Source of the DNA: a virus
DNA: 14,130 nucleotides
Virus genome (UHGV): UHGV-0306157
Strand: one strand, 5' to 3'
The number at the start of each line of letters is the position of its first letter. The stretch's first letter is position 1. This document shows positions 755 to 13,914 of this stretch, in pieces. The position numbers and the translations under genes were made by a program. Below the pieces are notes generated by a model. It made no database searches, was not told where the DNA came from, and worked only from the letters and a program-made list of their open reading frames with translations.

Positions 755-907
755 TTACTCCTCAGGTTCGTAAGCTGTGAAGACAGCGACCTCCGTCTGG
801 CCGGGTCGGATTCGTACCTCGCAGAGGTCTTTCCTCGTTACCAGTGCCGTCACTATGACGGTTAAACAGATGACGATCAGGGCGATTAACATCGTCTTTT
901 GCTGCAT
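755..907 (-). CDS. hokD: Hok/Gef-family type I toxin (small membrane peptide), HokD/RelF-like, 50 aa
   Basis: Hand translation of the minus strand gives MQQKTMLIALIVICLTVIVTALVTRKDLCEVRIRPGQTEVAVFTAYEPEE: one hydrophobic helix followed by the TRKDLCEV...GQTEVAVF..YE signature of Hok/Gef peptides, closest to my recollection of HokD(RelF). Absent from the ORF track because it is under 60 aa. In-frame GTG at 910 is an alternative start. Confidence 0.8.
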   Translation of the reverse strand: MQQKTMLIALIVICLTVIVTALVTRKDLCEVRIRPGQTEVAVFTAYEPEE

Positions 908-921
908 CACAGCCTACTTAC

Positions 922-1057: not shown

Positions 1058-2887
1058 ATGAGCACTTCCGCATACAAGAGCAAAATTCGAACACTCCAGT
1101 GCGCGTTAAAAAACGGTGAATTTGAACCATTCATACAACATATCCGTTTTCCATACTTTAAAAATATAGAGCAGAATGCAAGGATCGATTTTCAGTTCCC
1201 TATAACGGCTTTAGTAGGAAAAAATGGAACTAATAAAAGTTCTGTTATCAAAGCGCTATTTGGTTGCCCACATGGTAAAAATATAACTCGTTATTGGTTC
1301 ACAACTGAAACAGATGAGTTTCCTGACCTAAAACTTGCTGATGGCAGTTCTCTTAAACCTAGATATATATATGGATATAAAAATGCTGATGGCCGTTTAG
1401 TTGAAATACTCCAAGCGCGTATCAATGCTACCAAGAAAACAATCGATTATTGGGAAACAAGTCGACCATCTGTTGGTGATAACATGGAGAGTATTTCGGA
1501 TGATCTGGGTGCTAATAGTAATGCAACCAGATGGAAAAAAATCAAGAAGGGATTGGTTTTCCTAGATTTCAGATCGGAAATAAGTGCATTTGATAGATGT
1601 ATGTATCACTCTGATTTTAAATTAAGAAAGAAGAAGAGCGGTGTATTAATTACAAAGCAAGACTATATCAGAAGCAAATCTAAATATATAAAGAAAGCTT
1701 TTGATGAAAAGCTAAGTAATTTAAGACTTTGGGGGACGGAAACCATTGTTAAAAATATAATCTTGGCGCCAGAACTAGTTGAGCACGTCTCATTTATATT
1801 AGGGAAAAAATATAAAGTCATTAAATTTCTTGAGCATCGGTTATTTGGAACCAGAGGAGGAACCGCTTTACTTTCAACTGATAAGTTGAACTATACAGAA
1901 GCTTTTGCTGGAAGTGGTGAATTTGCAATAGTTTCACTAATACTCAATATTTATTCGGCCAAACCTAATTCATTAATTCTTCTTGACGAACCAGAAGTTT
2001 CACTTCACCCTGGTGCACAGAAAAGGATGATGGATGTTCTGTACTCTATTGTTGAGCAGAAAAAACATCAAGTGGTAATATCAACCCATTCTCCTGTTAT
2101 TGTGAACACTCTTCCCAAAGATGCCATTAAATTATTTGTTTTTGATGAAGAGAATGAAACAGCTAAAATAGTTCAAAATATAGCACCGGATGAAGCTTTT
2201 ATAGAGCTAGGGCATGATATTAACAAGAAAACAATAATTGTAGAAGATAAATTAGCTAAAGCAATTATAGATAAAGCGATTAAAAATGATGAAAGATTAA
2301 GCTTATCATTTAGTGTAAGTTATATACCAGGTGGTTCGGAGACCATTTTAAGCAAGCATCTTCCCAGTTACGCTGTGGTAGAACGCAATGATATTTTGTT
2401 TTTACTTGATGGTGATAAAAACAAAAAAATAAAACCAGTAAGAATTAGTGAAATTGCTGATGCTGATTTAGTTAATACAATGTGCAAATATTATGGTTGC
2501 GAGTTAATTATCAATGCCAGTGGTAGTAATGGCAAAAAAAATGAACAAGAATCTAATAGACTCAAAAGGCAAGTGCTTGAGTATGCATTCAATAAAGTGC
2601 AGTATTTACCATTTGATACTCCCGAACAATTACTCATTGAAAAGGCAATTACGCCAAGTGAAAAAGAAATAATTGATTCACAGACCTGGAGTTCTAATGA
2701 TCCAGAACTGTATAAGAATCAAATAAGATTATTAGCGCAACACCTGTATGATAAAGAAGAAGTAAATGCAGAGGAGATTTTTTGCATCCAAAAAATAATG
2801 ACCGCAAGACTTAAAAATGAATTGCCTGAATTTATAAAAATAAGAAAAATAATTACTCAGGCTCTTGACCGTGGTATCATTAGGTAG
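1058..2887 (+). CDS. ABC-type (SMC/RecF/OLD-like, AAA_21-like) ATPase with putative C-terminal TOPRIM-like nuclease domain, 609 aa
   Basis: Long ORF. P-loop VGKNGTNKSS (nt 1217-1240, deviant: N in place of the Gly before Lys); signature-like AGSGE; Walker B LILLDEPEVSLHP (Asp at 1985-1987); H-loop ISTHSP. C-terminal part has IIVEDK (Glu at 2243-2245) and LLDGDKN (DGD at 2408-2416) about 55 aa apart, compatible with TOPRIM Glu + DxD. Strongly AT-rich relative to flanking prophage genes. Confidence 0.8.
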   Translation: MSTSAYKSKIRTLQCALKNGEFEPFIQHIRFPYFKNIEQNARIDFQFPITALVGKNGTNKSSVIKALFGCPHGKNITRYWFTTETDEFPDLKLADGSSLKPRYIYGYKNADGRLVEILQARINATKKTIDYWETSRPSVGDNMESISDDLGANSNATRWKKIKKGLVFLDFRSEISAFDRCMYHSDFKLRKKKSGVLITKQDYIRSKSKYIKKAFDEKLSNLRLWGTETIVKNIILAPELVEHVSFILGKKYKVIKFLEHRLFGTRGGTALLSTDKLNYTEAFAGSGEFAIVSLILNIYSAKPNSLILLDEPEVSLHPGAQKRMMDVLYSIVEQKKHQVVISTHSPVIVNTLPKDAIKLFVFDEENETAKIVQNIAPDEAFIELGHDINKKTIIVEDKLAKAIIDKAIKNDERLSLSFSVSYIPGGSETILSKHLPSYAVVERNDILFLLDGDKNKKIKPVRISEIADADLVNTMCKYYGCELIINASGSNGKKNEQESNRLKRQVLEYAFNKVQYLPFDTPEQLLIEKAITPSEKEIIDSQTWSSNDPELYKNQIRLLAQHLYDKEEVNAEEIFCIQKIMTARLKNELPEFIKIRKIITQALDRGIIR

Positions 2888-2910
2888 TGATTCTGGATGC
2901 AGAGGGAAAA

Positions 2911-3951
2911 ATGAAAAAAATCAAAGTGTTTGACTTCTTTTCCGGTTGTGGTGGAACCAGCCAAGGTTTCCATCAAGCTGGAATGGATATTGTTTTTGGC
3001 CTCGATTTCGACGTTGATGCAGCCAGTTCATTTCGTGCAAATTTCCCGCAGGCTGCTTTTATTAACTCGGACATTAGGTTAATCGACAACAATGCCATAA
3101 ACAAGTTAGTAAAAAAACATCGTAATGATTACATTCTTTTTTCAGGATGTGCGCCTTGTCAACCGTACTCTAAGCAAAACTCAAATAAAAAAAATGATGA
3201 TCCACGATTAGATCTATTAAAGGAATTCAGTCGTTTTGTAGAGCATTATATGCCTGATTTTATTTTTGTTGAAAACGTGCCAGGAATGCAAAAGTTTAAC
3301 AAAAATGAAGGAACATTCATGATGTTTTTAGAAATGCTTTCATCAAAGGGATATAGTGTAGATTATAAAGTAATGCCAGCTGCGTGGTACGGTGTACCAC
3401 AGACGCGAGAAAGATTAGTGCTCATTGCATCCAAGGATTTTTATGTCGCATTGCCTTCTCCTACACATGGGGTTGGAAATACTCCCTATTCAACAGTAAA
3501 GGACTGGATCGCTAATTTACCGAAGATAGAAGCAGGAGAAAAGCATAATAGTATTCCTGATCATGAAGCTGCACGCTTATCAGAGCTTAATTTGCGTAGA
3601 ATAAAATGCACTCCTGAAGGTGGAAGTCGAGAATTTTGGCCAGATGAATTGATTTTAGAATGCCATCGTAACCATAAAGGGCATACAGACGTATATGGAC
3701 GTTTGAGTTGGGACAAACCAGCCAGCGGACTAACAACTCGTTGTATTAGCTATTCAAATGGACGTTTTGGACATCCAACACAAAATCGAGCAATATCGGT
3801 TCGTGAAGCAGCGTGTCTACAAACATTTCCTTTGGATTATAAATTTATTGGTTCTTTGCAATCTCGGGCTCGTCAAATAGGAAATGCGGTCCCTCCGAAG
3901 ATGTCTGAAACGATTGGAAAACATTTGCTTAATATAATCAAAGCCTCCTAG
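2911..3951 (+). CDS. DNA (cytosine-5)-methyltransferase, 346 aa, all catalytic motifs present
   Basis: Motif I FSGCGG, motif IV GCAPCQPYS (catalytic Cys), motif VI ENVPGM, motif VIII QTRERLVLI, motif IX ISVREAACLQTFP, motif X GNAVPP, with a variable region between VIII and IX. ATG at 2911 preceded by GAGGG (2902-2906); the track start at GTG 2887 overlaps the ATPase stop. 23-nt gap to the upstream ATPase gene implies an operon. Confidence 0.9.
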   Translation: MKKIKVFDFFSGCGGTSQGFHQAGMDIVFGLDFDVDAASSFRANFPQAAFINSDIRLIDNNAINKLVKKHRNDYILFSGCAPCQPYSKQNSNKKNDDPRLDLLKEFSRFVEHYMPDFIFVENVPGMQKFNKNEGTFMMFLEMLSSKGYSVDYKVMPAAWYGVPQTRERLVLIASKDFYVALPSPTHGVGNTPYSTVKDWIANLPKIEAGEKHNSIPDHEAARLSELNLRRIKCTPEGGSREFWPDELILECHRNHKGHTDVYGRLSWDKPASGLTTRCISYSNGRFGHPTQNRAISVREAACLQTFPLDYKFIGSLQSRARQIGNAVPPKMSETIGKHLLNIIKAS

Positions 3952-3966
3952 GAGGCTTTATTTTAT
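3941..3966 (+). terminator. intrinsic terminator at the end of the ATPase-MTase cassette (possibly bidirectional)
   Basis: Perfect palindrome AAGCCTCC-TA-GGAGGCTT (3941-3958), which contains the MTase TAG stop, followed by TATTTTATTGTTAT; the convergent minus-strand gene ends at 3984. Confidence 0.55.
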
Positions 3967-3983
3967 TGTTATCCCCCTAGTAG

Positions 3984-4415
3984 TTAATCGTGCTCACCAG
4001 ACAACCTCCTGAAATTACTCTGGTAAAATGCCAGTACACGCTGCATAACTTCGCTTTTCCGGCACTTGCGACAGATTATGTTCTGACGCCTGTCGTAGCG
4101 GCGTATTTCTCCGTCTGGTAATGACCAGATAAGGTCAGGATCAACCACAACCGGTTTCTTCATCTTTGCCCTTGATAGTTTTTTGCGGGCGTTTTGCCAG
4201 TCTTTACGCGCCTGCTCAGACGGGAATAATCCGTAGCCAGAATTGTAAACATCACCACTGGCGACCAGTTCTCTGGCAAGAGTGCTTATGTAATACCTTG
4301 ATGCACCGGTTTTAGCCTCCAGAGCCCGTAACGTCTCGCGACCGCTCAGACGTACAAGTTCAACAGCCTGCCCTTTAATTTTTTCCCACTCTTCTGGTGT
4401 AAATACTTTTGCCAT
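3984..4415 (-). CDS. hypothetical phage protein, about 143 aa
   Basis: ORF from track; I place the start at the ATG at 4415 (MAKVFTPEEW...) because GGAGG lies 5 nt upstream; basic C-terminal region with CRKCRK; no family recognised. Confidence 0.55.
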   Translation of the reverse strand: MAKVFTPEEWEKIKGQAVELVRLSGRETLRALEAKTGASRYYISTLARELVASGDVYNSGYGLFPSEQARKDWQNARKKLSRAKMKKPVVVDPDLIWSLPDGEIRRYDRRQNIICRKCRKSEVMQRVLAFYQSNFRRLSGEHD

Positions 4416-4430
4416 AGGTGCCTCCGGCAA

Positions 4431-5180
4431 TCACTTTTCCGATGCAACATGGCGGGAAGAATCAGTAATCTGTCGTACAATATCCCTGTGCTTGTTCAAC
4501 TCACGCAGCGCGACGCAGACACGCTCCCACTTCTGGACATGATTTTTCGCCCGACGCAGTTCGCGGTTTGCCATATGCAGTGATGGTAAAACCAGGTCAT
4601 CCGCTCGCGTTTCAGTAAACGATGGCAGCGACTGCACAATGTCCGCCACAGTTTCTGTTTTAATATCTTCCTGTGTTGCAGCCTCCTGTACTGGTAACGC
4701 AACACCTGCGGGCTGAGGAAAGGCCTTACCATCAGTTTCCGCTACCGATGCTGCTTTCGGCTCTGCTGGTAAATTATCGCCCGGTATGCAGTAACGAAAT
4801 TTACCGCCCTGATTTACGCGAATCAGACGACCTTTGCTGATTGCCATTGCCAGCGTTGAAGCCACTTTGCGTGATGTGGTACCAAACAATGTAGCCAGCT
4901 CATCAGCCGTTTGTGGTCCGCGTTGTTCAATCGTCGCGGTTAAATCGCTCTCCGAAATTTTTGTCACTGTTGTCGTAGTAGTTTCTTCCGGCGCTGGCTG
5001 TTCCTGCTGAACGTTGTTATCAGCCACACGCCAGGTGTACGCGCTTTTATCAACAAAACCAGCCTTTTTCAGTTCCCATAGTTCGTTCAGCACTTCTTCA
5101 CGACTGATATCAAGTCGCGCAGCAAGTTCTATGGATGTGGCTTTTCCCATTGCTTTCAGTGCGTCAAAAACAGTCTCCAT
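4431..5180 (-). CDS. hypothetical phage protein with N-terminal winged-helix-like region, about 249 aa
   Basis: ORF from track. Start at ATG 5180 ([44 protein letters not shown]) is preferred over 5231, which would overlap ydaV by 29 nt; GGGAGA lies upstream of 5180. Thr-rich linker [10 protein letters not shown]. Confidence 0.5.
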
Positions 5181-5202
5181 TAAATTTTTCTCCCGGTAAA
5201 AA

Positions 5203-5949
5203 TTACTTCGCAATTCCTGGCTGGACGACATTCGGACGCCAGCTCTCCCAGTTAAAATTCACCCAACGCCCGCCGTTCATGGTCATGCGATCCATAATCC
5301 TCTCGCCGAGCAATGGTTTCATGGCCTCATAGTTCAGGTTTGTCAGCATTCCCACGCTACGCATCGACGCTGTCCGTCGATCAATAATCTGGTGCAGTAC
5401 CACCTGCTCGTTTTTCGTCTCGCGCTGAATGCCAATTTCATCAAGAACCAGCAGATCCACTTCGCACAGCTCCCGCAAAAATTTTTCGCCTGACTGCCCG
5501 TCGTCATAGCTGGCGTGCAGGGCGCTCATAACATCAGCCACGGTAACCACAATCACTGTCTGACCGTCTTTCAGCAGGCGATTCCCGATAGCTGCCGCTA
5601 AGTGATTCTTCCCGGTACCAGGTTTTCCGCTGAACGCAAAATTTGTACACCCGGTCATCAGTTCATCGGCGATGGATTTCGCCTGGCTTAACGCGTATCG
5701 CTGCCCTTCGTTCTGCACCTGGTAATTCGCAAACGAGCATTTGCGGTGCAACGGCTGGATGCCAGAGCGATTCAGGATTTTTTCCACCCGCAACTGACGA
5801 TTCAGGCGGTTGATCTCCTCGCAACGTTTCTGGCCTTCAGCAAGTTGCCACTCGCGCCACTCCGCAACCGTTCTGAATGGGGCGGTTACATGTGGTGGGG
5901 TCAGTCTGCGGATACGCTCCAGAACGCCTCCTGTCGCAATATTTTTCAT
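5203..5949 (-). CDS. ydaV: DnaC-like replicative helicase loader (phage P-like replication protein), 248 aa
   Basis: Walker [22 protein letters not shown] and Walker [11 protein letters not shown]; near collinear resemblance to the E. coli DnaC AAA+ domain as I recall it; lies directly downstream of the O-like gene. Confidence 0.85.
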
Positions 5950-5955
5950 GGCCTG

Positions 5956-6744
5956 TTACCCCCTGAAGCCTGGCGGGATCGCACTGTCCGGCAACGAGAC
6001 GGTGTTAACCTGTCGGAGCAACGTCTCAGGCCGAACACCTTTCGGCGCGAACAGGCCCTGGTATTCATTGGCGATACTGTGTCGAATCACCTGCTCAGGT
6101 GTAAAACCCTGCTGGCGGAATTTTTCCAGCTCCCGTATCGCCCAGTTAGCGCCCTGCTCCGTTCGAATCGGTTTTCGCAATGCCTGCCTGAACCGGACCC
6201 ACTCATGCCAGAGTGTTTCCGGCAACCAATCGGGCAGCTCAATAGCCTCCGGCTCAAATTTTTTAGACGCTCGTTTTTGGCGAGGGGGATTTAGGGGGAG
6301 ATCAGTATTTATATCTTCCTCTTCCTCTTCCTCTGGTAACGCTTTTTGATCCATTTGTGTAACGCTGCCAGCGTTACCTTTTCGTTTCAGTTCGCGTATT
6401 TTTGTAACTCGCTCGTTTGTAACCGCCCGTTTTTTAGAGCTTTTCCCGTTATGACGTTCAAAGTTAGGTAGAGAAAGCCCACCGTCATTTTCGACCAGCC
6501 ATCCAACCTGAATTAACGCATCAGCAAAACCAGCCATAAAAGTGATGCGATCTATTGCACTTTTTGTAACGCCGCGAGCGTTACAATCTGCATTACCGTC
6601 TATCATTTGTTGATCCGCCCATGCCCAGAAGCGAATAACCTTCCCTAATGCGGCATCTGGATCAATATTCAGAATCTCAGCAAGCCTGAATATTTCCGGC
6701 TTATCCGGCGTAATAACCTCGAGCTTTATCCAGTTTGAAGCCAT
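5956..6744 (-). CDS. ydaU: phage replication initiation protein (lambda O-like, YdaU/DUF1376-type), 262 aa
   Basis: Position immediately upstream of the dnaC-like gene in a lambdoid replication module; acidic poly-Glu linker (EEEEEED); iteron-like palindromes embedded mid-gene; AGGTGA RBS upstream of the ATG at 6744. Confidence 0.6.
   Translation of the reverse strand: MASNWIKLEVITPDKPEIFRLAEILNIDPDAALGKVIRFWAWADQQMIDGNADCNARGVTKSAIDRITFMAGFADALIQVGWLVENDGGLSLPNFERHNGKSSKKRAVTNERVTKIRELKRKGNAGSVTQMDQKALPEEEEEEDINTDLPLNPPRQKRASKKFEPEAIELPDWLPETLWHEWVRFRQALRKPIRTEQGANWAIRELEKFRQQGFTPEQVIRHSIANEYQGLFAPKGVRPETLLRQVNTVSLPDSAIPPGFRG
6336..6423. repeat. cluster of GTAACGC-type repeats inside the O-like gene (candidate origin iterons)
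   Basis: Half-site GTAACGCT at 6336-6343; 19-bp perfect palindrome GTAACGCTG-C-CAGCGTTAC at 6359-6377; direct repeats TTGTAAC at 6402-6408 and 6417-6423; adjacent polypyrimidine tract at 6311-6333. Confidence 0.5.
6564..6586. repeat. palindrome TTGTAACGC-N5-GCGTTACAA (second copy of the GTAACGC inverted repeat)
   Basis: Perfect 9-bp arms read directly from the sequence; lies within the O-like coding region. Confidence 0.5.
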
Positions 6745-6756
6745 TTGTTTTCACCT

Positions 6757-6777
6757 TGTAACGCTCGCAGCGTTACA
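6757..6777. repeat. palindrome TGTAACGCT-N3-AGCGTTACA (third copy, noncoding, just upstream of the ydaU start/RBS)
   Basis: Perfect 9-bp arms; located in the ydaT-ydaU intergenic spacer 6745-6821, about 15 nt upstream of the AGGTGA RBS. Confidence 0.5.
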
Positions 6778-6821
6778 TTTAACTGATACCGAACAAAACA
6801 ATCCGGCACGATTAATTTCAA

Positions 6822-7244
6822 TCAATGCACTACGACAGAATCGCCGGGCGACCCACCACCGCTGAAATGTGCTTTCCGGTAAACGGCCTGGACTGCATCA
6901 TCATGCGCATCAATTGCCGTACTCAACGCTTCCTGCGCCGCCAGTAATGCACGGCGTTCCAAGGTATCGAAGATGCAGAGTCGGTGACGCAGCTCGCGCG
7001 GAAGAATTGCCAGAACCGCAGGGATCAGTTTCTGAATTTTTTCCCTTTGCGCTTTCGTTTCACCTTTCAACCAACGGTGATAGATATTCTGCTGATTGTT
7101 CCAGTCCTTGCCTGGTACAAGGGGCAATTCGCCGCCCCCCTGGCGCAGATATTCTTCAGTAATTGCGTTAGCGACCCACGCCTGCCCTTTTTCGGCTGCC
7201 AGGGCTAACAACACTGATTCGATGTGCTCATGCCTGATTTTCAT
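6822..7244 (-). CDS. ydaT: YdaT-family protein (Rac prophage; reported toxic partner of YdaS / CII-like regulator), 140 aa
   Basis: 140-aa ORF whose sequence (MKIRHEHIESVLLALAAEKGQAWVANAITEEYLRQGGGELPLV...) matches my recollection of K-12 YdaT; its start overlaps the ydaS stop by ATGA, implying translational coupling. Confidence 0.7.
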   Translation of the reverse strand: MKIRHEHIESVLLALAAEKGQAWVANAITEEYLRQGGGELPLVPGKDWNNQQNIYHRWLKGETKAQREKIQKLIPAVLAILPRELRHRLCIFDTLERRALLAAQEALSTAIDAHDDAVQAVYRKAHFSGGGSPGDSVVVH

Positions 7245-7483
7245 GAATCAACCGCTCCTATGCTGTTTTCGCTATGCTTACCGTCTGGGGGGAATACATC
7301 GTCAAGTCCACAATGAGCGCCAAGCCGATTAAGGGTAGAAACAATTTTTCTGCACTCCTCTAGTCCAGGGGTACGAAAATTTGCTTCGTAATTTGCCAGT
7401 CGGCTTTGTATCCACCCTAACTGAACAGCAAGTTGTCTTTGAGACAGCCCAAGCTGTTTTCGATATGTTGAAATTTTGTTCAT
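7241..7483 (-). CDS. ydaS: Cro-like HTH (XRE family) regulator, YdaS-like, 80 aa
   Basis: HTH motif LGLSQRQLAVQLGWIQSRLANYEAN; GGAGG RBS 6 nt upstream of the ATG at 7483; divergent from the repressor gene. Confidence 0.7.
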   Translation of the reverse strand: MNKISTYRKQLGLSQRQLAVQLGWIQSRLANYEANFRTPGLEECRKIVSTLNRLGAHCGLDDVFPPDGKHSENSIGAVDS

Positions 7484-7579: not shown

Positions 7580-7999
7580 ATGGAAAAAGAAAACGAAAAA
7601 ATTGCCGCTAGTAGGCTCAATGACAAAATTGCAATGCGTCTTAAAGAGCGCAGGCAGAAGCTTGGTTTATCTCAAGGAAAACTTGCTGAAATCTGCGGAT
7701 GGACGCAATCGCGTATAGGTAACTATGAGGCGGGCAGCAGAAATGTTGGAGTGCATGACGCTGTCGTATTGGGAAAGGCACTTGGCATATCTCCTCCTGA
7801 GCTCCTCTTTGGAGAACAGGAATCTTCTGAATTGTGGTTAAATGAATCCCAACGAAAACTTCTTGAGTTGTTTAACCAGCTACCGGGCTCAGAACAACAA
7901 CGAATGATTGAGCTATTTGAAGTCCGGCTAAAAGAAATCGATGAGTATGTAGAAAAATATTTGAGAGGCAGGCTTAAAGATAATCCCCCACCGGAGTAA
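7580..7999 (+). CDS. racR: prophage repressor, HTH XRE family (RacR/cI-like), 139 aa
   Basis: HTH LGLSQGKLAEICGWTQSRIGNYEAGSRN near the N-terminus with a C-terminal extension; divergent from the Cro-like gene; AAGGA RBS; followed by a strong terminator. Confidence 0.6.
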   Translation: MEKENEKIAASRLNDKIAMRLKERRQKLGLSQGKLAEICGWTQSRIGNYEAGSRNVGVHDAVVLGKALGISPPELLFGEQESSELWLNESQRKLLELFNQLPGSEQQRMIELFEVRLKEIDEYVEKYLRGRLKDNPPPE

Positions 8000-8458: not shown

Positions 8459-8866
8459 ACCATTTATTGGATTAATTCAATATTCTTGCTGTAGGGGTAT
8501 AGCCGAGGCCACCAAAGCCCGGAGGTGGTGAAATAAAACCGGGCACAACACGAAGGCGCATTTCCGGTATCCATAAAGAGTCGGTCTTGTCTGTTAAATT
8601 TAAATGGTGGGAGTGCGCCTCCGGTTGTAAATAACGACATTGCTATGTGTAGTCTTTGGCGGCATCAGTTCTACTCCGTGGCTGCCCTGCCGCCCCTTTT
8701 TAAAGTGAATTTTGTGATGCGGTGAATGCGGCTAAGCGCACGCGGCACAGTTAAAAGCATCAGTGTTATGGGTGGATTATCCGGCGTTAATTGTTAACTG
8801 GTTAACGTCACCTGGAGGCACCAGGCACCGCATCGACAAAATTCATTTGTAAAAATGGAGATAATT

Positions 8867-9709: not shown

Positions 9710-12700
9710 ATGAGCACCGATAAACAAGTTTACCCACTGTATTACGAAGCAAAAAATGACAAAGTAAGAAAATGTCTCGGTATTAAAGGCGGTTTCTACT
9801 GGGCTGAAGCGAAAAAATTATCCATTGCCATATCCCGTGGTGCTGTTGCGATTGACGATGCTGGCTACGATGAAGATGACTTTAAAAAACCTGTTCGCGT
9901 CAATTTGCCCGTTGTTGATGACCTTCCACCAGAGGGCGTATTTGATACGGAATTCTGCAACCGTTACGAAAAAGGCGGAGAAGATGGCATCACAATGGTA
10001 TTTATCGCGCCCTCATCCTCTGCGCAGGACAAGCCAGCCAGCACTGACAATACCAATGTTAATGGCGAAGACATGACGGAGATTGAGGAGAATATGCTAC
10101 TCCCGATTTCCGGTCAGGAGCTGCCCATTTGCTGGCTTGCTCAACACGGCAGTGAAAAACCGGTAACGCACGTTTCACGCAACGAACTACAGGCATTACA
10201 CATTGCACGAGCTGAAGAACTACCAGCTGTTACTGCCCTGGCTGTTTCCCACAAAACCAGCCTGCTCGACCCGCTGGAAATTCGCGATCTCCACAAACTG
10301 GTGCGTGATACTGACAAAGTTTTCCCTAATCCTGGTAATTCAGACCTGGGACTGATGACTGCTTTTTTCGAAGCATACCTGGGCGCTGACTACACCGATC
10401 GCGGTCTGCTGACAAAAGAGTGGATGAAAGGAAATCGTGTTTCACGCATCACCCGCACGGCTTCCGGTGCTAATGCCGGTGGAGGGAACAAAACCGATCG
10501 CAATCCGAATTTAGTACACACCTTCGATACGCTGGATGTGGAGATTGCAGCGGCCACACTTCCGATGGATTTTAATATTTATGAAATTCCGGGCAGCGTT
10601 TATCGTCGCGCAAAAGAAGTCGTCCAGAAGAAAGAAAGTCCGTTCAAAGAATGGTCCGCAGCACTTCGCGCAATCCCGGGTATCCTGGATTATTCCCGCG
10701 CCGCTATTTTTGCACTTATCCGGAGCGCACACCCTGAGTTTTATCATTACCCGGGACGCCTTCAGGGGTATATCAACGCCTATTTAACGGAGACTGATCA
10801 CGAGAACCCTACCGAGGAAACTCTCGCTGCTGCACGACATACACCGGAAAAAGATATCCTGGAAGAAGTTAACCGCGAACTGGCTGCTGAATGCGAAACA
10901 GAAGAAGAAAAAAATAATGAGGAAAAATCACAACCGTCTGACGCAATGGCAGATGAACAGGCAACGACTGAAGCAATGGAGCCGGATACAACTGAACATC
11001 GCCAGGACACGCAATCGCTGGATACTCAGGCACAGATAGATCCGGTTAATCAGGTAAAAGTTACCGCTGACGAAGTAAACAAAATTATGCAGGCAGCCAA
11101 TATCAGTCAGCCTGACGCCGATAAGTTGCTTGCTGCCTCTCGCGGAGAATTTGTTGCAGGGATTAGCGACCCGAATGATCCGAAATGGGTGAAAGGGATT
11201 GAAACCCGCGATTCTGTGAACCAGAACCAGCAAGAAACGGAACAGAACGACCCAAATACGCAACAAAACGAGCCAGAAACGAAACAGCCTGAGCCAGTAG
11301 TGCAACAACAGGAAACGGAGAAAGTTTGCACCGCCTGCGGTAAGGCTGGCGGCGGCAACTGTCCTGACTGTGGCGCGGTGATGGGCGACGCAACGTATCA
11401 GAAAACCTTTAATGAAGAAAATCAGAATGAATATCAGGAAAAAGGTCTGGAGGAAATGGAAGGTGCTGAACATCCGCACAAGGAGAACGCTGGCAGCAAT
11501 CCGCATTGCGATTGCAGTGATGAAGCTGGTGAAACGACAGCACCTGTAGTAACTGAAATCATGTGGCCGTCATATTTCGAGCCTGGCCGCTATGAAAACC
11601 TCCCGAACGAGGTTTATCACTCCGCCAACGGAATAAGCAGCACAATGCTGAAGGATGCCCGCATCAGCCTGATGTATTACCACGGACGGCACATTGCCGG
11701 AACTATTCCGGGCGAGGAAAGTGATGCATTGCTGCGTGGGCGGATTATTCACAGCTATGTTCTGGAAACGGATAAATTCGCTGATGAGTATGCCATTCCG
11801 GTACCGGTTCCTGAATATGTGGTTACTACTTCTAACGAACTGATCGCCATCATTAAAAAACACAATGCCAGTCTGCCAGCACTGATGACACCAGAGCAGA
11901 TGAAAGAGTGGATCGAAAGCTACAACAGCACTCTTATACAGCCACTGTCGGTAAGTGCCGGGGCCGAAGAAACAGGCATCCTTTACGGTTCGCTTCTGGA
12001 GGAATTCCGGCGTATTCCTGAGGGGGAAAAACACACAGCATCAGCAATGAAAGCCTGTATTAAAGAATACAACGCAAGCCTCCCTCCTCTGCTGAAAACC
12101 AGTGGAACACGAGAGCAGCTCCTGGAGCAAATTGAAACTGTAGATCCAGAACTGGCAAAAAAAGAACGTGCTAAATCTTTGCCTTACAACATCAGTGGCA
12201 CAAAAGAGCAATTAACCGAAATCGCCCGGAAAATTCGCCCGGAACTGGTAACACTGGAGGACTGGCAAAAACGCCAGCAAGAAGAAAACGCCGGGAAAAC
12301 GTTTATCAGTCCGGATATGTATGAACAGGCAAAAAATATTCACGCAGCACTGCAAAACAATACTGATGCAGCAAGGCTACTCAACCACCCGGATCGCAAA
12401 TCTGAAATCAGCTATTTCGGGTTTGATGAAGAAACCGGGCTGGAAATCAGGGTCCGTCCTGATATCGAAATCCGGCTGCCATACGAAAGCATTTGCGCCG
12501 ACGTGAAGTCAGTCAGCCTCGGTTATGTGCGACAGGAACGACTGAAAGATCGCCTGCACCGTGAAATTATTGAACGTGATTATCACCTCAGCGCAGCAAT
12601 GTATTGCGATGTGGCAAACCTGGACAAATTTTTCTGGATCTTCGTCAACAAAGATGCTGGCTATCACTGGGTGGCCGTCGTGGAAGCCTCGCAGGAACTC

Positions 12701-12850
12701 CTGGAACTTGGTCGACAGGAATATCGCCGGACACTACGACAGATAAACGAAGCTCTGGAGACAAACAACTGGCCAGCACCGATTACCGAAAGTTATACCG
12801 ACGAATTAAACGACTTTGATCTTCGTCGTCTTGAAGCACTGAGCATCTGA
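9710..12850 (+). CDS. recE: RecE-like exodeoxyribonuclease VIII (long acidic linker, C-terminal PD-(D/E)XK-like nuclease region), 1046 aa
   Basis: Position upstream of recT-like and lar; N-terminal segments (NTNVNGEDMTEIEENMLLPISGQELP..., CTACGKAGGGNCPDCGAVMGD) match what I recall of RecE; C-terminal RPDIEI ... ICADVKSVS resembles a PD-(D/E)XK core; central low-complexity E/Q/N/T-rich region explains the many spurious minus-strand ORFs. Confidence 0.7.
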   Translation: MSTDKQVYPLYYEAKNDKVRKCLGIKGGFYWAEAKKLSIAISRGAVAIDDAGYDEDDFKKPVRVNLPVVDDLPPEGVFDTEFCNRYEKGGEDGITMVFIAPSSSAQDKPASTDNTNVNGEDMTEIEENMLLPISGQELPICWLAQHGSEKPVTHVSRNELQALHIARAEELPAVTALAVSHKTSLLDPLEIRDLHKLVRDTDKVFPNPGNSDLGLMTAFFEAYLGADYTDRGLLTKEWMKGNRVSRITRTASGANAGGGNKTDRNPNLVHTFDTLDVEIAAATLPMDFNIYEIPGSVYRRAKEVVQKKESPFKEWSAALRAIPGILDYSRAAIFALIRSAHPEFYHYPGRLQGYINAYLTETDHENPTEETLAAARHTPEKDILEEVNRELAAECETEEEKNNEEKSQPSDAMADEQATTEAMEPDTTEHRQDTQSLDTQAQIDPVNQVKVTADEVNKIMQAANISQPDADKLLAASRGEFVAGISDPNDPKWVKGIETRDSVNQNQQETEQNDPNTQQNEPETKQPEPVVQQQETEKVCTACGKAGGGNCPDCGAVMGDATYQKTFNEENQNEYQEKGLEEMEGAEHPHKENAGSNPHCDCSDEAGETTAPVVTEIMWPSYFEPGRYENLPNEVYHSANGISSTMLKDARISLMYYHGRHIAGTIPGEESDALLRGRIIHSYVLETDKFADEYAIPVPVPEYVVTTSNELIAIIKKHNASLPALMTPEQMKEWIESYNSTLIQPLSVSAGAEETGILYGSLLEEFRRIPEGEKHTASAMKACIKEYNASLPPLLKTSGTREQLLEQIETVDPELAKKERAKSLPYNISGTKEQLTEIARKIRPELVTLEDWQKRQQEENAGKTFISPDMYEQAKNIHAALQNNTDAARLLNHPDRKSEISYFGFDEETGLEIRVRPDIEIRLPYESICADVKSVSLGYVRQERLKDRLHREIIERDYHLSAAMYCDVANLDKFFWIFVNKDAGYHWVAVVEASQELLELGRQEYRRTLRQINEALETNNWPAPITESYTDELNDFDLRRLEALSI

Positions 12851-12861
12851 GGAAGGACACA

Positions 12862-13914
12862 ATGAACGAATTAACTCAACAAGAAAATATTAACTCTAAT
12901 GTTGCGGTTTTCAGCCCTCAGTCCCTGGCTGCAATTCAGACATTTTCCCAGGTAATGGCTTCCGGCATGGCTACTGTACCGGAACACCTCCGGGGAAATC
13001 CATCAGACTGCATGGCCATCACCATGCAGGCGATGCAGTGGCAAATGAACCCTTACGCAGTAGCTCAGAAAACTTTCGTTGTGAATGGTGTGCTCGGATA
13101 TGAAGCGCAACTGGTTAATGCCGTAATCAGTACTCGTGGGCCGCTAACCGGGCGTATTGAATATGACTGGTTCGGGCCGTGGGAAAAAATTATCGGGAAA
13201 TTTGAAATCAGGAAGAACGACAAGGGGAAAGAATATCGTGTACCTGGCTGGAAGCTGGCCGATGAAAACGGGATCGGAGTTCGCGTCCAGGCAACACTAC
13301 GCGGAGAGAGCAAGCCACGCGTACTGGAGTTACTTCTGGCGCAGGCCAGAACACGTAACTCAACGTTATGGGCCGATGATCCTCGCCAGCAGCTTGCCTA
13401 TCTGGCACTGAAACGCTGGGCGCGCCTTTATTGCCCTGAAGTGATTCTTGGAGTGTACACCCGGGACGAACTGGACGAACCACAGGAAAAAATCATTAAT
13501 CCGGTTCAGGAACATAAAAATACATCCGCCTGCCGTGCGGAACGTGAAACAACAATTATTGAGCAGGATGCCGGGGAAAACTGGATCAGTGCTTTCCGTG
13601 AACGTATTGAGCAGGCACAAAGCACCGGAGAAACAACATCACTTCGCCAGGAAGTGGAAGATCATAAAAATACACTTGGCGCTCTCTACACAGAACTTAA
13701 AGGAAAAGTGGTTCAGCGTCATCACCGTCTCAATGCTATTGCCCGTATTGAGACGATGATAAATGACCTGCCTTCATCAGGTGATCCAGAAGCAGAACAA
13801 AAATTTATTGCTCTGGAAAATACGCTGAATGCTGCACGACCACATCTGGGAGAATTATATGAGGCGTATAAAACGACACTGACAGATATGAAACCAGAAT
13901 ATATCGGCTCCTGA
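12862..13914 (+). CDS. recT: RecT/Red-beta family single-strand annealing protein, 350 aa
   Basis: Immediately downstream of recE (11-nt gap, AAGGA RBS); TVPEHLRGNPSDCMAITMQAMQWQMNP and VLGYEAQLVNAVISTRG align with the recalled RecT core (TVPALGNCDTMSFVSAIVQCSQLGLEP ... IIGYRGMIDLARRSG); longer and divergent compared with K-12 RecT. Confidence 0.65.
   Translation: MNELTQQENINSNVAVFSPQSLAAIQTFSQVMASGMATVPEHLRGNPSDCMAITMQAMQWQMNPYAVAQKTFVVNGVLGYEAQLVNAVISTRGPLTGRIEYDWFGPWEKIIGKFEIRKNDKGKEYRVPGWKLADENGIGVRVQATLRGESKPRVLELLLAQARTRNSTLWADDPRQQLAYLALKRWARLYCPEVILGVYTRDELDEPQEKIINPVQEHKNTSACRAERETTIIEQDAGENWISAFRERIEQAQSTGETTSLRQEVEDHKNTLGALYTELKGKVVQRHHRLNAIARIETMINDLPSSGDPEAEQKFIALENTLNAARPHLGELYEAYKTTLTDMKPEYIGS

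Follow-up and report, generated by a model that had tools for sequence, protein, structure and literature searches.

The window analysed here is the whole 14,130-nucleotide (nt) stretch UHGV-0306157, an E. coli-type sequence, and all coordinates refer to it. At positions 1058-3951 it carries a cassette of two plus-strand genes, one for an ATPase with a putative C-terminal TOPRIM nuclease domain and one for a cytosine-5 (C5) DNA methyltransferase (Table 1). A sequence-only reading of the window had described here a 609-amino-acid (aa) OLD-like ATPase, a 23-nt gap and a complete C5 methylase, in a cassette that is strongly AT-rich, antisense to the neighbouring genes and closed by a terminator, and all of these elements proved to be in place. 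The GC content of 1058-3951 is 0.358, against 0.50 for the minus-strand neighbours at 3984-7483 and 0.49 for 9710-13914. The terminator-like hairpin has a GC-containing stem of 8-9 base pairs at 3940-3959, followed by a T-run tail; the stop codon of the methylase gene falls within it, and the minus strand also reads as a terminator. Since shuffled sequence gave about equally many terminator-like sites in the same scan, the argument for a terminator is the position of the hairpin, not the scan statistic. The sequence immediately 5' of 1058 yielded no convincing sigma-70 promoter. For the methylase, some gene callers choose an in-frame GTG at 2887 (cluster P0121), which shares one base with the stop codon of the ATPase gene and would yield a 354-aa protein; RefSeq uses ATG 2911, where the ribosome-binding site is better.

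Table 1. Features of the cassette and of the prophage around it in UHGV-0306157 (positions in nt; residues are those of the ATPase-TOPRIM protein).
Feature	Position	Strand	Details
ATPase-TOPRIM gene	1058-2887	+	open reading frame and translation; ATG start; 609 aa; stop TAG 2885-2887
ABC ATPase head, residues 1-370	1058-2167	+	Walker A G54-x-N-G-T-N-K60-S-S = nt 1217-1243
TOPRIM-type nuclease region (predicted), residues 371-495	2168-2542	+	Glu396-Asp397 = nt 2243-2248; P424-G-G426; Asp451-Gly452-Asp453 = nt 2408-2416
C-terminal helical region, residues 496-609	2543-2884	+	predicted helices
Intergenic spacer, 23 nt	2888-2910	+	GAGGG at 2902-2906, resembling a ribosome-binding site
C5 cytosine DNA methyltransferase gene	2911-3951	+	ATG 2911; 346 aa; stop TAG 3949-3951
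Terminator-like hairpin	3940-3967	+	AAAGCCTCC-TAGG-GGAGGCTTT, tail ATTTTATT; sequence reading
hok (Hok/Gef toxin)	755-910	-	PF01848, 2.8e-23; 150 nt from ATPase start
DUF977 gene	3984-4430	-	neighbour directly past methylase
DUF1627 gene, DnaC/IstB-like ATPase, YdaT-like gene, Cro-like helix-turn-helix (HTH) gene		-	
RacR-like repressor gene	7580-7999	+	
DicF antisense small RNA gene	8644-8695	+	Rfam RF00039, 60.9 bits vs gathering score 48
recE	9710-12850	+	1046 aa
recT	12862-13914	+	350 aa

The head of the first protein is an ABC-type ATPase. In addition to Walker A, we recognized the signature AGSGE (residues 284-288), Walker B D310 with E311, and the H-loop histidine H344. Pfam matched this ATPase part only (AAA_21, 2.6e-20; AAA_15, 6.1e-20; SMC_N), returning no match to a TOPRIM model and, at threshold, none to OLD-TOPRIM or DUF2813. 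The best PADLOC profile was HEC-04 (4.2e-34), a partial match of residues 234-459 to positions 162-383 of 494, and the second was ATPase-Toprim_I-B of type I-B retrons (2.4e-26, 90.9 bits, also partial); both alignments run through residues 459-464, that is, into the TOPRIM region. Similarity to Old (58.6 bits) and GajA (58 bits) was restricted to the C-lobe of the ATPase (residues ~301-372), and the AriA profiles aligned to the ATPase part alone. There was no restriction endonuclease model among the best 25 PADLOC matches. HEC-04 (Hma-embedded candidate 04) is a validated single-gene phage defence that is toxic when induced and needs its Walker A and TOPRIM residues, defence being abolished by mutation of E319/D375/D377 (Payne et al., bioRxiv 10.1101/2024.01.29.577857). 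Like the window protein, it is an ABC ATPase-TOPRIM single polypeptide with the same layout of catalytic Lys, Glu and DxD, and the Glu-to-Asp spacing in the TOPRIM site is 55 residues here and 56 in HEC-04. It is, however, shorter (a 494-position profile versus 609 aa), differs in its N-terminal half and inserts, and is nested as a single gene in Hma systems, with no conserved C5 methylase partner described.

Structure prediction pointed in the same direction as the profiles. An AlphaFold2 model of the full-length protein, built on 20 homologues, had a predicted local distance difference test score (pLDDT) of 80.7, and Foldseek returned as its best PDB match the full-length Thermus scotoductus OLD protein (6p74; 6e-12, 613 aligned columns), then GajA. 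Residues 370-609, modelled separately (pLDDT 91.3, predicted template modelling score 0.85), had as their top four PDB matches Class 2 OLD proteins from Xanthomonas and Burkholderia, in each case the C-terminal region, at probabilities of 0.98-0.99, E values of 2e-3 to 7e-3 and template modelling (TM) scores of 0.35-0.42; chain A of the PARIS entry 8ux9 came sixth. E396, D397, D451, G452 and D453 are invariant in the 20 homologues and in 67/67 proteins of a larger set, as in that set are the Walker A Lys, the Walker B Asp-Glu, the signature and the H-loop His; Gly426 is invariant in the 20 and present in 66/67. Residues 496-609 are the least conserved part (mean pairwise identity 0.23); their helices were modelled at pLDDT >90, and they align jointly with the helical portion of OLD C-terminal regions.

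Four independent lines (profiles, the fold of the full model, the fold of the C-terminus and the invariant residues) thus indicate that residues ~370-609 are a TOPRIM nuclease, which we judge to be divergent because Pfam finds no TOPRIM match. The OLD-like ATPase with a TOPRIM C-terminus put forward in the sequence-only reading is upheld in this form: the PADLOC profiles, Foldseek and the invariant Glu396 and Asp451-Gly452-Asp453 agree, and the proposed check of the fold by profile and structure gave OLD C-terminal regions in the first four places, with weak scores. Combining Walker A, signature, Walker B and H-loop with a C-terminal Glu and DxD, the protein is by its architecture a member of the OLD superfamily that lies outside the described classes. 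When delimited against 1.84 billion representative proteins (E <=1e-30), its family was well separated, comprising 373 clusters at 50% identity, and occurs in Escherichia, Klebsiella, Salmonella, Yersinia, Pseudomonas, Pasteurella and Mycobacterium.

The second protein, as read from its sequence, is an ordinary and complete C5 methyltransferase. It matches Pfam DNA_methylase (PF00145, 4.9e-61) over profile positions 1-322 of 324, TIGR00675 dcm (1.4e-48; 166 bits against a cutoff of 100.65) and PADLOC MTase_II (1.3e-96), with DruM and DrmMII profiles matching as well. Motifs I (FSGCGG), IV (PCQ, with Cys83), VI (ENV), VIII (QTRER), IX and X (GNAVPP) follow each other in order, which together with the full-length profile match places it in the dcm superfamily. 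P82-C83, E121, V123, Q164, R166 and R168 are invariant in 67/67 partner methylases. Its best PDB sequence matches were Dnmt1 catalytic domains. One Klebsiella homologue, 63% identical, bears the automated name 'Modification methylase HgiDII', which was not taken as evidence of specificity, and a transposon-sequencing paper on an essential cytosine methylase turned out to concern the MvaI system, not the window methylase.

To see how far the two genes travel together, we surveyed them from both sides. Starting from the ATPase, and taking one genome per species, we collected 80 loci from Gamma-, Beta- and Alphaproteobacteria, Actinomycetota, Bacteroidota, Acidobacteriota, Bacillota, Planctomycetota, Myxococcota, Desulfobacterota, Patescibacteria, Lentisphaerota, Fibrobacterota, Ignavibacteria and a cyanobacterial relative. 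A C5 methylase gene was directly adjacent on the same strand in 61/80 (45 downstream, 16 upstream) and, in another 10/80, lay on the same strand <=3 kb upstream with one gene between; it was found only farther away or on the opposite strand in 4/80 (L016, L025, L063, L079). Five of the 80 loci had none, three of these being truncated by contig ends. On IMG/VR viral contigs, 60 of 64 ATPase loci had an adjoining methylase (54 same-strand, 6 convergent), and three of the four that did not were at contig ends. The reverse survey of viral contigs, in which a single-protein scan returned near-identical copies only and which was repeated with an alignment, found the ATPase beside 40/41 methylases at >=57% identity, the exception having no upstream sequence on its contig, and beside 0/39 methylases at <=49% identity. 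Failure of the genes to co-occur elsewhere, named in the sequence-only reading as the finding that would speak against a unit, was thus decisively contradicted in both directions.

The arrangement of the pair is as persistent as its presence. In about a dozen phyla, and between ATPases of 32-41% identity, the two genes have stayed adjacent, the methylase being placed downstream, upstream or convergent. Among 85 pairs in the ATPase-then-methylase order the median gap is 12 nt, with <=30 nt in 77/85 and an overlap of 1 or 4 nt in 18/85; we read such tight spacing and overlaps as a co-expressed operon. The divergence of the two partners is correlated (Mantel r 0.56; 0/2000 permutations as high). 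From gene order and sequence, then, the pairing is near-obligate, reciprocal and co-diverging across phyla, and since no catalytic residue of either enzyme varies among the 67 complete pairs, both activities are under selection, and jointly so.

These surveys bear most directly on the possibility that the two genes are independent cargo that happens to co-travel, an orphan anti-restriction methylase next to a stand-alone defence protein of the OLD/HEC-04 type. Each half of that idea has precedents: HEC-04 and Class 1 OLD proteins act as single genes, phages often carry orphan C5 methylases (sister methylases of 40-55% identity on viral contigs have no ATPase), and defence genes cluster. Independent genes would not, however, be expected to keep their adjacency across phyla in both survey directions, to show operon spacing with start-stop overlaps, or to co-diverge, nor does the idea sit well with a methylase clade (>=57% identity) seen only with the ATPase. 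It fits the distribution poorly, and we consider it improbable.

All four homologue look-ups (three methylases, one ATPase), in Klebsiella, Pseudomonas syringae, Pasteurella multocida and a second E. coli lineage, placed the pair in a prophage. It occupies one of two positions there, the interval from the Q antiterminator to the lysis genes or the site immediately following a cI-like repressor. In P. syringae (L091 1434-5023) and Pasteurella multocida (L092 1439-5038) it is directly 3' of, and on the same strand as, a cI-like HTH/Peptidase_S24 repressor gene, a position from which it would be expected to be expressed in the lysogen.

Several loci depart from the simple pair. In six (L030, L061, L076, L080, L084, L087), from Bacteroidota, Patescibacteria, Lentisphaerota and others, a gene for a GHKL ATPase of 540-680 aa (HATPase_c_3, with a Hypoth_Ymh/HEPN-like tail in 2/4 scanned) stands between the methylase and the ATPase-TOPRIM gene. 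This three-gene variant recalls MORC/paraMORC R-M (restriction-modification) systems (Iyer et al. 2008); GHKL ATPases in cytosine-methylase R-M loci are a precedent that does not describe the ATPase-TOPRIM/methylase pair. At L079 (133-7740) the genes in between encode a 1007-aa HEF_HK/GHKL histidine-kinase-like protein and a Response_reg_2 protein, and a Response_reg_2 protein is also found near the methylase-less ATPase of L070 (9337-10977). In the Bacteroidota loci L072 (3657-7764) and L078 (3645-7752), an M.HpaII-like methylase, R.HpaII (PF09561, 1.3e-132) and then the ATPase-TOPRIM protein are encoded by abutting or overlapping genes, and the methylases are merely 23-24% identical to that of the window. 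With HpaII-type and other C5 methylases beside the ATPase, the constant partner is therefore some C5 methylase, not one clade. Frameshifted ATPase genes beside an intact methylase occur in two copies, in E. coli EC11 (L001 12001-13831) and at L170 (2169-3970); such cases of natural decay are anecdotal. Pseudogene asymmetry was also considered in complete E. coli genomes, where variants of the pair occur in 32, 8 and 10 genomes, nearly all intact, which is too few copies for statistics.

Described OLD proteins fall into Class 1 (P2 Old, Thermus scotoductus OLD, Vibrio cholerae OLD), Class 2 (Gabija, GajA with GajB), Class 3 (retron-linked), Class 4 (PARIS, AriA/AriB) and Class 5 (archaeal Cran1). 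The window protein shares with them the N-terminal ABC ATPase and C-terminal TOPRIM, and with P2 Old a prophage-borne context; it differs in its partner, which is a C5 methylase and not a helicase, reverse transcriptase, separate TOPRIM protein or membrane protein. Class 2 could be ruled out because the gene that follows, in the window as in most homologues, encodes a C5 methylase, Class 3 because the window has no reverse transcriptase gene and no msr/msd RNA (Rfam found DicF only), and Class 4 because ATPase and TOPRIM are in one 609-aa reading frame rather than in separate AriA and AriB (DUF4435) proteins. No methylase partner is named in the OLD-family reviews and class definitions consulted. 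That no named system fits, as had been suspected at the outset, held: Pfam, NCBIfam and PADLOC v2 contain no full-length model of the ATPase-TOPRIM protein, and the pair is undescribed in these databases and in the full-text literature searched, a comparison that left REBASE and current DefenseFinder models outside.

With R-M systems the cassette shares a methylase gene linked to and co-inherited with that of a neighbouring nuclease, varied gene order, a mobile and patchy occurrence, and copies with a broken nuclease and an intact methylase. It differs in having a TOPRIM domain behind an ABC ATPase, and in being without a helicase or McrB-type motor. A Type II restriction enzyme was ruled out, as the candidate nuclease is the ABC ATPase-TOPRIM protein and not a known restriction fold; the restriction enzyme folds known to us are PD-(D/E)XK, HNH, GIY-YIG, PLD and half-pipe, none of them TOPRIM. 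ATP-dependent R-M systems built on C5 methylases include NgoAVII/CglI, LlaJI and BsuMI. C5 methylases also serve in DISARM class 2 (DrmMII) and Druantia type II (DruM), the profiles of which match the window methylase. In PrrC-EcoprrI, RloC, AbiL/RloAB and HEC-01 to HEC-03 an ABC ATPase nuclease is likewise tied to DNA modification, possibly as a second defence line; their modification partners, however, are Type I or Hma systems in which the methylases act on N6-adenine, and the nuclease is of the HEPN, PIN or NERD kind or a separate TOPRIM protein. A computational precedent for cytosine methylases as the modification arm is given by systems of CxC-clade ABC ATPases with DndE (NAR 2024, PMC10853773), which differ in using another ABC clade (DndD/CxC), in needing DndE as a partner and in having no fused TOPRIM.

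With a probability of about 0.5, we take the cassette to be a self-contained two-gene, modification-linked defence operon with R-M logic, carried as prophage cargo. In such a system the methylase would mark its target sites, in host and prophage DNA alike, with 5-methylcytosine, the SMC/Rad50-like ABC head of its partner would engage DNA, and DNA without the mark, such as that of an incoming phage, would release the TOPRIM nuclease; an OLD-family ATP-dependent nuclease would then take the place of a conventional restriction enzyme. We infer that methylation protects self and that the nuclease reads the methylation state. R-M logic is favoured because the linkage is reciprocal, the arrangements are typical of R-M systems, methyl-transfer chemistry is under selection, and HEC-04 is toxic and depends on its catalytic residues. 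By analogy, the nuclease could act on DNA, like GajA and the Vibrio cholerae OLD protein, or, in a suicide response, on tRNA, as has lately been reported for P2 OLD and PARIS. Among the relatives, GajA cuts DNA, the Vibrio OLD protein nicks it, and PARIS and retron-Septu cut tRNA. The wider proposal, a new R-M-like immunity class and a further OLD class in which an ABC-driven TOPRIM nuclease is licensed by the absence of 5-methylcytosine, which would make it the first TOPRIM-fold restriction component, falls somewhat short of even odds in our estimate.

We rank as the main rival a guard, or abortive-infection, module. Here the methylase protein would restrain a latent suicide effector, possibly a tRNase, or the effector would fire once an anti-restriction factor of a phage disturbs the methylase or its methylation. 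The models for this are the EcoprrI R-M complex, which silences PrrC, and PARIS, which fires on Ocr; self-methylation would be a side activity or the guarded thing. The closest profiles and structures are indeed those of abortive or sensor systems (HEC-04, the retron I-B ATPase-TOPRIM, AriA, PtuA and Old), HEC-04 was discovered embedded in a methylase-containing system, and P2 OLD has newly been reported to be a tRNase that is triggered by DNA structures and leaves DNA intact. The frequent translational coupling would suit a stoichiometric complex, and the ATPase is found intact without a neighbouring methylase, as well as in third position behind a complete HpaII system. A fixed protein lock, however, would have had to re-evolve repeatedly to accommodate C5 methylase partners down to 23-24% identity (L072, L078), and the invariance of the methylase catalytic residues in 67/67 pairs suggests that methyl transfer itself, and not the protein alone, is selected; a lone methylase without a restriction partner is also an odd thing to guard. 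Because the ATPase pairs with unrelated C5 methylase clades, we think it likelier that a DNA mark is read than that a fixed protein lock operates, and regard a guard module as unlikely, while less so than the other alternatives.

A number of observations nevertheless weigh against R-M logic. The TOPRIM fold match of the modelled isolated C-terminus is top-ranked yet weak, and has no Pfam TOPRIM match beside it. In L072 and L078 the ATPase-TOPRIM protein appears to add to a true restriction enzyme rather than to replace one. In 6 of ~137 loci with room for it (L049, L070, L140, L016, L025, L063) there is no C5 methylase adjoining an apparently intact ATPase-TOPRIM gene, and the six proteins keep all catalytic residues; the nuclease is therefore not necessarily lethal alone, unless a methylase acts in trans. 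In metagenome-assembled L036 (7283-8271) the methylase beside the ATPase is split into two frames. When seven ATPase blocks were compared with the target-recognition region of the methylase, with the methylase core controlled for, none co-varied specifically with it (partial correlations 0.04-0.13), and this co-variation search found no candidate methyl-reading or sequence-reading element. Finally, recent work describes several OLD-family effectors as tRNases triggered by DNA structures or phage proteins, a mode that needs no methylase. For L070, two adjoining open reading frames beside the methylase-less ATPase (4292-5475, minus strand) encode an AspBHI N-terminal domain and an Mrr catalytic domain; these are domains of the methylcytosine-dependent type of restriction enzyme, and could explain the missing C5 methylase.

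The element that carries the cassette is, by its genes, a Rac-like prophage. In the flanks of two E. coli copies (H1, H2) the cassette lies between the DUF977 gene and hok, and the same slot in other Rac-like prophages (E. coli H39-H42) holds a homologue of the epoxyqueuosine reductase QueH and a Doc-family toxin; the cassette is therefore a discrete moron at a variable cargo site. It is present at >=99% identity in 32/5426 complete E. coli genomes; the pair FORC64_RS13965 and RS13970, for instance, is 99.5% identical to that of the window. On the phage side its occurrences are limited to prophages and proviral contigs, with no match by megablast or tblastn (1e-20) in 50,697 records of isolated phages.

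This distribution also bears on whether the ATPase-TOPRIM protein might be a repair accessory of 5-methylcytosine methylation, processing T:G mismatches or damage as a functional analogue of Vsr, a nicking enzyme that is a frequent companion of C5 methylases. Its partners are C5 methylases specifically, N6 or N4 enzymes never being seen as partners in the surveyed loci, and it stands behind M.HpaII-like and R.HpaII genes, a position that recalls the vsr-like gene reported near the HpaII system. The MutL-like GHKL ATPase added in some variants is also a theme linked to repair-like R-M systems. Yet presence in 32 of 5426 genomes is the pattern of an accessory defence gene and not of a repair function, and the pair is found preferentially on prophages and at a variable cargo site; moreover, all characterised relatives are defence or conflict proteins, and we saw no similarity to mismatch-recognition domains. 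A repair function, with its poor fit to the distribution, seems to us very improbable, the least likely of the explanations considered.

Some features of the surrounding prophage may be recorded here. The leader and promoter region of hok abut the cassette, and an Rfam scan at the gathering threshold found no Sok RNA beside hok; DicF was the sole RNA family found in the window. It sits in the prophage immunity region, flanked by the RacR-like repressor gene and recE. The recE and recT reading frames of the window exceed the annotated copies of E. coli FORC 064 (recE 2601 nt, recT 810 nt).

In E. coli, PGAP names the two proteins 'ATP-dependent nuclease' (32 genomes) and 'DNA cytosine methyltransferase', so the parts are already annotated and the system itself is not. 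What our analysis supports as new is a system of R-M-like logic with an OLD-family effector, a clean and widespread candidate, not a revolutionary one. In telling self from non-self, the OLD-family ATPase-nucleases have proved to differ in trigger from class to class: DNA ends, phage proteins, retron DNA or replication hairpins. If the proposed mechanism is true, an OLD class hard-wired to a methylase would give this family an explicit and genetically tractable self-mark and would link it to epigenetic discrimination, while R-M biology would gain a new nuclease fold and an ATP-dependent mechanism. The family is compact and easily recognised, and being absent from PADLOC v2 it goes unscored by that tool in phage-host and phage-therapy surveys. 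Under the proposed mechanism, it would constitute a class of immunity spread over about a dozen phyla, often serving prophages as a weapon against competing phages.

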